42,376 nucleotides of DNA from a virus (IMGVR_UViG_2778261452_000001), one strand, 5' to 3'; numbered from the stretch's first letter, positions 11,455 through 41,351 are shown. The notes: generated from the letters alone by a model not told the origin. Made by a program: numbers and translations.

Positions 11455-11539
11455 TTGATTGCTTGCCCGTTCCGGGCCTTTTGACATGTGACTTTCGTTA
11501 CCCTCGCGTCAAAAAGAGTTTTTACGAAAGGAAGCATAA

Positions 11540-12733
11540 GTGACCTGGGACGATCACAAAAAGAATTTTGCTCGCCTGGCGCGAGATGGTGGTTACACCA
11601 TCGCACAGTATGCCGCCGAGTTTAATCTTAACCCTAATACCGCACGTCGTTATCTCCGTGCCTTCAAAGAAGACACCAGGACTGCGGACAGCCGCAAGCC
11701 AAATAAGCCAGTCAGGAAGCCACTAAAAAGCATGATCATTGATCACTCTAATGATCAACATGCAGGTGATCATATTGCGGCTGAAATAGCGGAAAAACAG
11801 AGAGTTAATGCCGTTGTCAGTGCCGCAGTCGAGAATGCGAAGCGCCAAAATAAGCGCATAAATGATCGTTCAGATGATCATGACGTGATCACCCGCGCCC
11901 ACCGGACCTTACGTGATCGCCTGGAACGCGACACCCTGGATGATGATGGTGAACGCTTTGAATTCGAAGCTGGCGATTACCTGATAGATAACGTTGAAGC
12001 GCGGAAGGCCGCGCGCGCTATGTTGCGTCGGTCCGGGGCCGATGTTCTGGAAACCACTCTTCTTGAAAAGTCTCTTTCTCATCTCCTTATGCTGGAGAAC
12101 GCCAGGGATACGTGTATTCGCCTGGTGCAGGAAATGCGCGATCAGCAAAAGGACGATGATGAAGGTACTCCGCCTGAATACCGTATCGCGAGCATGCTAA
12201 ACAGCTGTTCCGCGCAGATAAGCAGCCTGATCAACACCATTTACAGCATCCGGAATAACTATCGAAAAGAAAGCCGGGAGGCGGAAAAGCACGCTTTGTC
12301 TATGGGGCAAGCTGGCATTGTTAAGCTGGCATACGAACGAAAGCGTGAAAATAACTGGTCAGTGCTGGAAGCAGCTGAATTCATCGAGGCGCATGGCGGG
12401 AAAGTGCCGCCCCTGATGCTGGAGCAAATCAAAGCCGATCTGCGTGCTCCGAAGACCAATACCGATGATGAGGAAAGGCAAACAGCCGTCGGTGGCCCTT
12501 CTCTTGAAGATCTGGACAAAGTTGCGCGAGAACGGGCCGCCAACCGCCGCGCCGATGCCGCATTGTGGATTGAGCAGCGTAGGGAAGAAATCGCCGATAT
12601 CGTTGATACAGGCGGTTATGGAGATGTTGATACTGAAGGTGTATCAAACGACCCATGGCTGGAACAAGACCTGGACGAAGACGAGGAGGAAGACGAAGAA
12701 GTTACCCGCAAGCTATACGGGGATGATGATTAA
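11540..12733 (+). CDS. pacA: PacA, terminase small subunit
   Basis: 397-aa product, GTG start with AAAGGAAG SD; contains the pac hexanucleotide cluster; acidic C-terminus; size matches P1 PacA. Confidence 0.85.
11733..11891. other. pac packaging site: seven TGATCA/G hexamers (4 + 3) each carrying a Dam GATC
   Basis: Read directly: TGATCA at 11733, 11740, 11752, 11767; TGATCG 11863, TGATCA 11875, 11886; arrangement matches recalled P1 pac. Confidence 0.8.
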
Positions 12734-14217
12734 TGGCCAGAAGTTGCGTAATGGATCCACGTTGGCGCGAGCTGGTGGCGCTATATCGTTATGACTGGAT
12801 TGCTGCCGCTGATGTTTTGTTCGGCAAAACACCTACCTGGCAGCAGGATCTGATTATTGAGTCTGTGCAGGAACAGGGTAGCAAGACATCTGTTTCGTCT
12901 GGTCACGGTACCGGGAAATCAGACATGACTTCTATCATGATCATGTTGTTCATAATCATGTATCCCGGTGCCCGCGCCATTATCGTTGCGAACAAAATTC
13001 AGCAGGTAATGACCGGTATATTCAAGTACATCAAGATAAACTGGGCTACTGCCACCAGCCGTTTCCCATGGCTTGCTGATTATTTTGTTCTGACAGAAAC
13101 CGCTTTCTATGAGGTTACTGGTAAAGGTGTATGGACTGTAGTACCGAAGGGCTTTCGTTTGGGAAGTGAAGAAGCTCTCGCCGGTGAACACGCAGATCAT
13201 CTTCTGTATATTATCGATGAAGCCTCCGGTGTCAGTGATAGAGCTTTCGGTATCATCACCGGTGCTCTTACCGGACAGGATAACCGCATCTTATTACTGT
13301 CACAGCCTACACGCCCAAGCGGCTATTTCTACGATACACACCATAAACTGGCCAAGCGTCCTGGTAACCCTGATGGCGTTTATACGGCGATCACGCTTAA
13401 CAGTGAGGAATCACCGCTGGTAACGCCAGCATTTATCAAAATGAAGCTGGCGGAGTACGGCGGGCGTGATAACCCTATGTACATGATTAAGGTACGCGGC
13501 CTATTCCCTAAATCACAGGATGGCTTCCTTCTTGGACGTGATGAGGTTGAACGTGCAACGCGGCGGAAAGTCAAGATTGCCAAAGGATGGGGCTGGCTTG
13601 CATGTGTGGACGTTGCTGGTGGTACGGGACGGGATAAGTCCGTTATCAATATCATGATGGTGTCCGGCCAGCGAAATAAACGCCGTGTAATCAACTATCG
13701 AATGCTGGAATACACAGACGTTACAGAAACGCAGCTTGCCGCCAAAATTTTCGCAGAATGCAATCCTGAGCGATTCCCAAATATCACCATAGCGATAGAC
13801 GGCGATGGCTTGGGTAAAGCAACGGCGGATCTGATGTACGAGTATTATGGTATTACCGTACAGCGTATACGCTGGGGTAAAAAGATGCATAGCCGTGAAG
13901 ATAAGAGCCTGTACTTTGATAAACGTGCTTATGCCAACGTTCAAGCCGCAGAGGCCGTAAAATCTGGTCGTATGAGACTGGATAAGGGTAATGAAACTAT
14001 TGAGGAAGCGTCGAAAATCCCTGTAGGGATTAACTCCGCAGGTCAATGGAAGGTGATGAGTAAGGAGGATATGAAGAAAAAACTCAACCTGCACTCACCA
14101 GACCATTGGGATACATATTGTTTCGCTATGCTGGCGGATTATGTTCCCCAGGATGAAGTGCTTAGCGTCGAAGACGAAGCGCAGGTTGATGAAGCTCTGG
14201 CATGGCTTAATGAATAA
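12733..14217 (+). CDS. pacB: PacB, terminase large subunit (ATPase plus nuclease)
   Basis: 494-aa product; start overlaps pacA stop (TAATG); Walker A SGHGTGKS and Walker [10 protein letters not shown] read directly. Confidence 0.85.
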
Positions 14218-14241
14218 CTCATTGACCATGCCGGATAGAAA

Positions 14242-15093
14242 CTATTGCGCGCTTTCGGGATTGTCGTTTACTGGCTGCCCCTTCTTAGTTTTACGGCTGC
14301 GCGTAACTGATGCGGCTGATTTGACCTTTTTCTCTTCGCGAGTGATGGCAATTTGTTTTTTTACATTTTCAATATCTGCCAGGCGATATATTTTTGCCTG
14401 CGGCCAGCGGTCGCAGATGATCGGTTCTATAGAGTCATAAAGGCTAAATTTTGCTTTCTCGAATTCACCGTTGATGATGATTCCATCACGGAGAGTTTCA
14501 TCGCAGATAAACACACCACACAGCGGCACATGGTAACTAACTGATTTACCATCATTGTAGTTAGGGCTACTGGAAATGTAATGGACGCGCAGCATTGTTT
14601 CGCTAAAGCCGTGTACACGCATACGGAATTTTTCATCCTCCGGGTACTGCTTCATTAGCTCTTTTGTTGCTTCCAGGTTCTCTATGTATTTCGCACTGTG
14701 CTCATTGATCCCCGCGCTTTTCTGGATGCGAATGTCCTTATCAATCAGATGAATAATGCGGCCAGCGGTCATGTTGACGCTGTTCACAGCTTCTGTCTGA
14801 TAAGTTGTAACCTTACGCACACCGCGAAGGATGTTAGGCACTGGATATAAAATAGTCTTTGGGATATTGAGGTCTGGGTACTGTTCCAGTTCCCGCGCCA
14901 TTAAAGTCCATTTATCAATTTCAGCCTGAATGCTGTCCGTTTCTTTGAACGGCAGAACGACAACCGGGCGAACAGGACGACCGTCGCTGGCGGCATCAAC
15001 GTGTTGGGCGCGTGCAACAGCTTTTTTTAGAAAGAGATCCCTGAAGCTGACGAACTCCTGGTACAGTTGTTCGCCGTAGACATAATTTATCAT
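14242..15093 (-). CDS. c1: C1 repressor of lysogeny
   Basis: 283-aa minus-strand ORF with GGAGGAGG SD; length and position (between pacB and coi/loxP) match P1 c1; operators with its consensus occur in this window. Confidence 0.88.
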   Translation of the reverse strand: MINYVYGEQLYQEFVSFRDLFLKKAVARAQHVDAASDGRPVRPVVVLPFKETDSIQAEIDKWTLMARELEQYPDLNIPKTILYPVPNILRGVRKVTTYQTEAVNSVNMTAGRIIHLIDKDIRIQKSAGINEHSAKYIENLEATKELMKQYPEDEKFRMRVHGFSETMLRVHYISSSPNYNDGKSVSYHVPLCGVFICDETLRDGIIINGEFEKAKFSLYDSIEPIICDRWPQAKIYRLADIENVKKQIAITREEKKVKSAASVTRSRKTKKGQPVNDNPESAQ

Positions 15094-40259: not shown

Positions 40260-40680
40260 CCTGTGCGAGATTTATTACGTAACTTCTGCGGATTTGCTGA
40301 GTAACAGGGAAAATCCGATACAACGGGTTAATGAACGAGTCGCCATGCGTAACCATGACGTTGAAATGCCACAGTCGCTCTCCTTTACCCATATATTCAG
40401 TGGGTATGTACAACCATTCACTGTTTTCGCCCTGTTCAGCCGACGTCAGACAACGTTGTTCGCCTTCAATCACTGTCGTCGGCTTCTGAACATCGCGGAT
40501 CCAATATCTGACCGTTGCGCCGCGCAAAAACGGGAATTTAGACCGGTATTTGAACGGCACCCGGATGAAACCCGGTTTAATTTCCACATCACCAAGTTCT
40601 AAATGCGTGATGTCCTTGCGTTTTAGCAAATAGCGATCGGCTAAGGCTAACGCAAGAACGCATACACCCCAGCCAATCAT
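40237..40680 (-). CDS. lydB: LydB, antiholin candidate
   Basis: 147-aa ORF overlapping lydA end by 4 nt; position matches P1 lydB. Confidence 0.6.
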   Translation of the reverse strand: MIGWGVCVLALALADRYLLKRKDITHLELGDVEIKPGFIRVPFKYRSKFPFLRGATVRYWIRDVQKPTTVIEGEQRCLTSAEQGENSEWLYIPTEYMGKGERLWHFNVMVTHGDSFINPLYRIFPVTQQIRRSYVINLAQDVSDDEK

Positions 40681-41006
40681 TTCCCGCCTCCCTTTTTCAC
40701 CAAACTTGTAAGAACATTCAGAATGCTATCGATATTCACTCGTTTCATCCCTGAAATCACCTCATGACCGTTATTGCTGGCTATCGTTACCATTAAGTAC
40801 GTAATTGATAACTCCCAGCCCTCGTGTTGCCCCAATAGGTACGCCACCGCGCCAGCTGTCACTGCAACAAAGATCTCCGTAACCAATCCCAACAAATTGC
40901 CAGACTGGCGACCGTCTCGGACATCCATCAGGAACGTACCTATCCCACCAATTACTGAAAGCAGGAGCGCAATAGCAACTGGAGCTAATTCCTGTGTGTC
41001 AAGCAC
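40677..41006 (-). CDS. lydA: LydA, holin
   Basis: 109-aa product with hydrophobic segments (VAIALLLSVIGGIGTFLM, IFVAVTAGAVAYLLG) and charged C-terminus; GTG start with AGGAGGGA SD. Confidence 0.7.
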   Translation of the reverse strand: MLDTQELAPVAIALLLSVIGGIGTFLMDVRDGRQSGNLLGLVTEIFVAVTAGAVAYLLGQHEGWELSITYLMVTIASNNGHEVISGMKRVNIDSILNVLTSLVKKGGGK

Positions 41007-41066
41007 AAGTTCCCTCCTACGTTGTCAGGAGGTAATGGTATGCAAAGTAACTTCTCATCTGGTTGT

Positions 41067-41351
41067 TCATAATTTGCCAATACATTCGTAAATCAAGTGA
41101 AAAACCCATATTTTGGTTATTCTTAATACAAAATGGCTATTCCAACTACATATCAAAAAAGCAACCACATCCAAAAATGAGTTTCCCCACTGAACTTCTG
41201 CAAGACAAAAACCAACAAAACCACCTTTTATGGCAAGCAGCCATGCTTCAAGCCAATGTAAAAAACATGGCTTATAAGCTCCACGCCTAACTCCAGTAAG
41301 AAATAAATAGGTTCCACTAATAATGGACATTAAAAAAATCAAAATCTGCAT
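41067..41351 (-). CDS. hypothetical polytopic membrane protein upstream of lydA
   Basis: 94-aa ORF, ATG at 41351 with very strong SD GGGAGGAG; several hydrophobic segments; AT-rich codons. Confidence 0.45.
   Translation of the reverse strand: MQILIFLMSIISGTYLFLTGVRRGAYKPCFLHWLEAWLLAIKGGFVGFCLAEVQWGNSFLDVVAFLICSWNSHFVLRITKIWVFHLIYECIGKL

Follow-up and report, generated by a model that had tools for sequence, protein, structure and literature searches.

Late promoters of the window and their counterparts in phage P1

The viral DNA analysed here, IMGVR_UViG_2778261452_000001 (42,376 nucleotides, counted from its first letter and in its entirety referred to as the window), represents a P1-like phage or plasmid genome. 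It maps onto P1 84378-94800 and 1-32563 with 94-98% identity (blastn against AF234172), and a megablast comparison of positions 11000-19000 with phage records gave 93-98% identity to P1, P7, SJ46 and other punaviruses. The element under study is a short motif, ACAAGTGA(C), that recurs upstream of late genes and that the first-pass annotation had put forward as a late promoter element, located near -22 and dependent on the late promoter activator Lpa. All P1 promoter positions, boxes and consensus sequences used in the following are those of the GenBank AF234172 annotation, in which a 9-bp "-22 region" and a -10 element are marked for every one of 11 late promoters, and from which we extracted the consensus (AC)AAGTGACTT-N4-TAnnnT. 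The motif is almost certainly the -22 box, i.e., the upstream recognition element, of P1-like late promoters, six of which are present in the window and are named LPhot, LPpac, LPmat, LPpro, LPlyz and LPdar after P1. Each is composed of a 9-bp inverted repeat, AAGTNACTT, that is usually preceded by AC and followed by a spacer of 4 bp (9 bp in LPhot) and a -10 of the TAnnnT type, and none has a -35 element. This element is already described and annotated in the P1 reference and does not constitute new biology. The other P1 promoters LPs, LPsit, LP23, LP26 and LPpmgL map outside the window.

At all six sites box, spacer and -10 are identical to P1. The box agrees with at least 8 of 8 specified positions of the inverted repeat or else carries the deviations that P1 itself has (ATGTGACTT, AAGTGACTA and AAGTGATTT), and the -10 follows at 4 bp in five promoters and at 9 bp in LPhot. 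LPpac (plus strand, 11484-11504) features a tgAC flank, the box ATGTGACTT at 11486-11494, the spacer tcgt and the -10 TACCCT at 11499-11504, 35 nt before the GTG start codon of pacA at 11540, and is identical to the annotated P1 LPpac. Upstream of mat, LPmat (plus strand, 18485-18505) combines a tgAC flank, the box AAGTGACTT (18487-18495), the spacer cagt and the -10 CAGAAT (18500-18505) and is identical to P1 LPmat at 2678-2696. LPpro (plus strand, 27665-27685) consists of a taAC flank, the box AAGTGACTA (27667-27675), the spacer gtgt and the -10 TAAATT (27680-27685), identical to P1 LPpro at 17251-17269, with the prt start at 27728 lying 42 nt from the -10. LPlyz (minus strand, 31386-31406) has a taAC flank, the box AAGTGATTT (31404-31396), the spacer gcat and the -10 TATCCT (31391-31386); it is identical to P1 LPlyz at 20969-20987 and is separated by 87 nt from the lyz start at 31298. 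LPdar (minus strand, 41035-41055), with a tgAG flank, the box AAGTTACTT (41053-41045), the spacer tgca and the -10 TACCAT (41040-41035), corresponds exactly to P1 LPdar at 31212-31230 and precedes the GTG start of lydA at 41006 by 28 nt. LPhot, finally (plus strand, 7532-7555; box AAGTTACTT at 7532-7540, an exact match, and -10 AATAAT at 7550-7555), is identical to AF234172 86521-86544 and lies 22 nt before the start codon of hot at 7578, the Hot protein being 100% identical to that of P1. All six promoters thus face a late gene, i.e., hot, pacA, mat, prt, lyz or lydA, located downstream in the correct orientation.

The four motif copies reported earlier next to prt, lyz, mat and pacA are therefore real and lie directly upstream of these genes, although their coordinates were off by 1-15 nt; they correspond to the window sites 11486, 18487, 27667 and, on the minus strand, 31404, which match LPpac, LPmat, LPpro and LPlyz base for base and at the same map positions. 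The proposed identity as the Lpa-dependent element near -22 and the suggested comparison with the known P1 late promoter consensus both hold in the light of the AF234172 annotation, and LPhot is to be added as a late promoter that was absent from the original list. The two weaker copies proposed in addition do not qualify. The one at about 7180 is merely the minus-strand word GCAAGTGC (GAGCAAGTGCTCC), which scores below 9 bits, lacks a usable -10 of the TAnnnT type and is not annotated in P1. For the one near 41078 the nearest word is TCAAGTGA at 41093-41100 (plus strand), located inside a minus-strand open reading frame (ORF), the real LPdar being found at 41035-41053 on the minus strand.

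In a sigma-70 scan of LPmat and LPpro no same-strand -35/-10 pair was detected at either site, which fits promoters devoid of a -35, and in the remaining four promoters, which were inspected by eye, no -35 hexamer was seen 16-18 bp ahead of the -10.

The distance between the -10 of LPmat and the mat start amounts to 19 nt when the start annotated in P1 is used, or to about 130 nt when counted to the first in-frame ATG of the window. The mat region (18525-19276) carries one G fewer than P1 in a run of G residues at about 18626/18627, so that the Mat N-terminus annotated in P1 (start equivalent at 18525) is out of frame. The intact mat ORF of the window encompasses only 222 amino acids from 18608, with the first ATG at 18635, and a terminator-like hairpin of 8 pairs with a T-tail is situated at 18596-18614 between LPmat and this ORF. 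Two readings are conceivable: the true mat start may lie further downstream than annotated in P1, with a terminator or attenuator in the leader, or else the window may bear a frameshift or sequencing error.

Enrichment of the composite element

A search of the whole window located exact ACAAGTGA at 18485-18492 and 27665-27672 on the plus strand and at 31399-31406 on the minus strand, while the pacA site is represented by the one-mismatch variant ACATGTGA (11484-11491, plus strand). The word ACAAGTGA(C) consists of the flanking AC plus the initial six or seven positions of the canonical box AAGTNACTT; relative to the latter it is displaced leftward by 2 nt and has its right end cut off. In this form the motif does not exceed chance: three exact copies compare with 1.16 expected (three or more in 11 of 100 shuffles), and 32 copies with one mismatch compare with 31.6 expected. 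The same holds for ACAAGTGAC with up to one mismatch (12 copies vs. 7.7 expected) and for ACAAGTGACTT with up to two mismatches (13 vs. 9.4), both within chance. The composite pattern AAGTNACTT-N4-TANNNT, in contrast, has seven matches with at most one mismatch where 0.50 are expected, a number that none of 100 shuffles reached. Five of the seven are late promoters and the other two arise from the palindromic boxes of LPhot and LPdar read on the opposite strand. The enrichment signal stems from the combination of box, spacer and -10 and not from the bare word. A motif frequency equal to random expectation, named beforehand as the outcome that would speak against a promoter element, is nearly what the bare word shows, whereas the composite element is far above chance.

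The same five sites stand out when the window is scored with a matrix built from the ten late promoters annotated in P1 that have a 4-bp spacer. They reach 21.7-28.2 bits, i.e., 25.5 bits for LPpac (11482-11504, plus strand), 25.9 for LPmat (18483-18505, plus strand), 28.2 for LPpro (27663-27685, plus strand), 25.5 for LPlyz (31386-31408, minus strand) and 21.7 for LPdar (41035-41057, minus strand; 0 mismatches to the composite pattern), compared with at most 13.0 bits in the rest of the window.

In addition to the box itself, the dinucleotide AC immediately 5' of it is present in eight of the ten P1 late promoters with a 4-bp spacer, contributing about 1.5 bits per position, while P1 late promoters show no conservation of the symmetric GT 3' of the box. 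When Cronobacter phage JK004, a more distant relative treated below, was scanned with a matrix blind to the flank, the top six matches all carried AC immediately 5' of the box. It is conceivable, albeit rather doubtful, that the functional recognition element is larger than the 9-bp palindrome and asymmetric, with the upstream AC as conserved as the box. The asymmetry of the AC could set the direction of the promoter.

The activator gene lpa and the predicted regulatory circuit

The late promoter activator is encoded by lpa (11002-11454, plus strand), the product of which comprises 150 amino acids, shares 149 of 150 residues with P1 Lpa and is assigned to Pfam family PF25716 (BPP1_LPA, E = 3.1e-57). 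As in P1, the gene adjoins LPpac. A search with the operator consensus identified the C1 operator Olpa at 10915-10931 (plus strand), identical in sequence to the annotated P1 Olpa at 89904-89920. Olpa overlaps the sigma-70 promoter of lpa and puts this gene under the control of the prophage repressor. With lpa, Olpa and the late promoters all intact, the published circuit is complete in the window.

A conserved 9-bp inverted repeat present in all 11 P1 late promoters constitutes the Lpa-binding site (PMC10695390), and P1 late transcription requires the host protein SspA (PMC8201110; PMC7515715). Lpa is described in a passage of PMC1891329, citing Hansen et al. (2003), as binding DNA in a sequence-specific manner and presumably activating transcription by direct contact with SspA bound to RNA polymerase; action of Lpa via SspA is likewise stated in PMC8201110. 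By analogy with this literature, binding of Lpa, dependence on SspA and late timing would also apply to the element in the window. The prophage repressor C1 would hold lpa off via Olpa, as published for P1. Upon induction or infection Lpa would be made and would occupy the -22 box, and together with RNA-polymerase-associated SspA it would allow sigma-70 RNA polymerase to start at promoters without a -35. The predicted outcome is the late switch-on of the genes for packaging (pacAB), head (prt-pro, mat) and lysis (lyz, lydAB) and of the dar genes. The P1-like element therefore keeps the full canonical late transcription circuit from C1 operator via lpa to late promoters, which is useful for its annotation.

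Several further sequences resembling operators or boxes were noted. The box-like palindrome ACAAGTCACTCGT (10887-10899) lies immediately ahead of Olpa and was weighed as a candidate autoregulatory site for Lpa. It was rejected as it resides in the coding end of pdcB, reads ACAAGTCATTCGT in P1 and is not kept in JK004. A C1-operator-like 17-mer with 3 mismatches, ATTGCCCTAATGTATTT (27582-27598, plus strand), lies in the 5' coding region of darB, about 85 bp from LPpro; it is also present in P1 (17166-17182), where AF234172 carries no operator annotation. Another 17-mer of this kind with 3 mismatches, ATTGCTCTAATTATTTG, occurs upstream of c8 (17296-17312, plus strand). It is not an annotated operator, and at a stringency of 3 mismatches no counterpart was detected in P1.

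Conservation in Cronobacter phage JK004 and in close relatives

Searches with Lpa (tblastn) yielded two diverged relatives, one from Cronobacter phage JK004 (67% identity) and one from phage D6 (31% identity). In JK004 (MZ188976), sites recognized by the P1 matrix are located upstream of the apparent counterparts of R, gene 23, gene 26, pacA, prt and lyz. These counterparts were judged by size and order in the genome, and the assignments of pacA, prt and lyz were confirmed by alignment; as the JK004 record names every protein hypothetical, these three aligned assignments are the only confirmed ones. When LPpac, LPpro and LPlyz are aligned to JK004, box and -10 stand out as conserved amid intergenic DNA that has diverged. 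At LPpac the upstream intergenic DNA of JK004 cannot be aligned at all, and at LPlyz nothing but the C1 operator and the box survives.

A second P1-type box of JK004 (cAC AAGTGATCT gctt TACGAT; 83285-83303, plus strand), with a low score of 12.3-15.9 bits, is located at a distance of about 80 bp from the orthologue of LPlyz and faces away from lyz toward gene_114, which occupies the position of ssb in P1. Judging from the sequence, this box may be a late promoter without counterpart in P1.

Scanning contig collections for more divergent Lpa loci brought up close relatives only, which are of no help for deep divergence. Genome contigs contributed three Lpa loci, two of them 99% identical and one partial (residues 1-58) with 90% identity, and viral contigs another 80, all of which are 99% identical in Lpa.

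Assessment of alternative explanations

A short word such as ACAAGTGA may simply recur by chance and have no function, as the counts of 8-, 9- and 11-mers with mismatches, all within expectation, would allow. The frequency of the composite element is incompatible with this idea, and the exact copies are all intergenic, face late genes and keep a fixed distance of 4 bp to the -10. Moreover, the sites coincide with annotated and partly experimentally defined late promoters of P1, and the box is kept in JK004 amid diverged flanks, so that coincidence has a practically negligible probability. Somewhat less extreme, but still very improbable, is the proposal that (T)GAC or AAC together with the first bases of the box (TGACAA, or TTGACA in LPpac) constitutes a displaced sigma-70 -35 and that these sites are ordinary sigma-70 promoters independent of an activator. 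TTGACA is indeed found at 11481-11486 in LPpac, LPmat contains both TTGACA and TGACAA upstream, and a predicted sigma-70 promoter of P1, Pmat, also makes use of the LPmat -10. The hexamer is, however, only about 12 bp away from the -10, far short of the 16-18 bp required by sigma-70, neither LPmat nor LPpro gave a same-strand promoter in the sigma-70 scan mentioned above, and late transcription is reported to depend on Lpa and SspA in passages of PMC10695390, PMC1891329 and PMC8201110.

The box might also work in both directions and drive a divergent neighbor, as was assumed for the LPpro box with regard to darB. Such an arrangement finds some backing in the near-palindromic nature of the box and in the single annotated box that LP26 and LPpmgL share in P1. 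The darB product, furthermore, is packaged into the virion and has to be expressed late. On the other hand, the hexamers located on the opposite strand at 4 bp from the six boxes, AGGATT (LPpro), GTTGTC, AAAGGC, GCTACG, TCTGGT and TTTTTT, do not include a single TAnnnT, and the conserved AC flanks the box on one side only. AGGATT does not have the A that is critical at position 2, and P1 has a separately annotated sigma-70 promoter, PdarB, for darB. Without a usable opposite-strand -10 at 4 bp the LPpro box does not serve the divergent darB gene as had been supposed, and bidirectional use of the box in general is very unlikely.

Four points weigh against the identification of the motif as the -22 box of late promoters. 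The bare 8-mer is not enriched. The -10 of LPmat (CAGAAT) is weak, and LPpac and LPlyz have TAnCCT. The activity of each site in the window is predicted from P1. Finally, when LPhot, LPpac and LPmat are compared across the 83 near-identical relatives, 4 of 68 columns vary in the core and 30 of 394 in the flanks; polymorphism does not set the two apart, and evidence for constraint comes from JK004 alone. The sequence of the window contains nothing that contradicts late promoters at the six sites.

Other features of the window and of P1

Mapping by blastn revealed four departures of the window from AF234172, one insertion and three replaced segments. The insertion of 5.4 kb (806-6197) resides in the pmgT/pmgU region and is without P1 counterpart, and a short replacement of 0.9 kb (19277-20167) stands where P1 has the EcoP1 res/mod genes. 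The third departure (32950-34066) replaces IS1/isaB and carries an ORF of 364 amino acids (32941-34035) without Pfam match. The sequence AAGTGACTA atcg TATACA (32939-32957, plus strand), which agrees with the box at 8 of 9 positions, sits exactly on the junction between P1-homologous isaA and this ORF. It was rejected as a promoter since its 11.8 bits are within the shuffle range, the AC flank is missing and the -10 is poor. In the fourth (41064-41419), lydC is replaced by a segment with a minus-strand ORF of 94 amino acids (41067-41351), again without Pfam match. The word TCAAGTGA at 41093-41100 (plus strand) lies within this ORF, has the box half AAGTGAAAA and no late gene downstream, and was likewise discarded as a promoter.

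Outside the region covered by the window, P1 itself contains CAACAAGTGACTGGTGATAACCT inside gene 7 (AF234172 76780-76802, minus strand), which attains 21.6 bits compared with 22.0 bits for LPdar in the same scan but does not figure among the annotated late promoters. The genes downstream of gene 7 (24, 6 and 5) may be served by it as an internal late promoter, or it may be a chance match, the maximum in 30 shuffles being 21.2 bits.

Comparison with known systems

Among the diverged relatives, JK004 resembles P1 in that (AC)AAGTGACTT-N4-TAnnnT precedes the apparent counterparts of late operons. It differs from P1 by single-base changes in the box, e.g., AAGCGACTT and GTGTGACTT, by flanks that are largely unalignable and by the lack of promoter annotations in its record. 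Phage D6 (MF356679) likewise combines a -10 with a box located a few bp upstream and lacks a -35 at putative promoters before prt, lydA, R, pmgB, gene 23 and others, whereas the box itself is a different one, AAATCACA, and the spacer is longer (about 6-8 bp). The pattern AAATCACA-N(~6-8)-TAnnnT is located before about nine late operons of D6, including those of prt, lydA, R, pmgB, gene 23, ddrB, gene 26 and orf16, with examples at 25221-25241, 38113-38135, 45491-45511 and 54124-54144, all on the minus strand. AAATCACA is found 17 times compared with 3.3 expected and a maximum of nine in 200 shuffles, statistics that are indicative only as the pattern was chosen after inspection, which makes it a lead and not a test. 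A single P1-type box, TGACAAGTGACTTtcatTAATCT, is present in D6 between gene 26 and mat (71092-71114, plus strand).

A different box in combination with a diverged Lpa is what would be expected if the specificity of the box follows the activator, and the late promoter box appears to co-vary with Lpa across P1-type phages and D6. The AC flank and the apparent switch of the box in D6 go slightly beyond the AF234172 annotation and could guide work on the specificity of Lpa.

A scheme of the same kind is realized in Francisella, for which the P1 Lpa/SspA system is named as a precedent (PMC1891329). There, MglA-SspA and PigR represent a case of a DNA-bound activator that works via a protein associated with RNA polymerase, at promoters with a -10 and an upstream box but no normal -35. 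As the proteins, box sequences and positions of Francisella are unrelated to those of the P1 Lpa system, this is an analogy and not membership in the same family. The middle promoters of phage T4, served by MotA and AsiA, are a looser analogue of the combination of an activator with an RNA-polymerase-associated protein.

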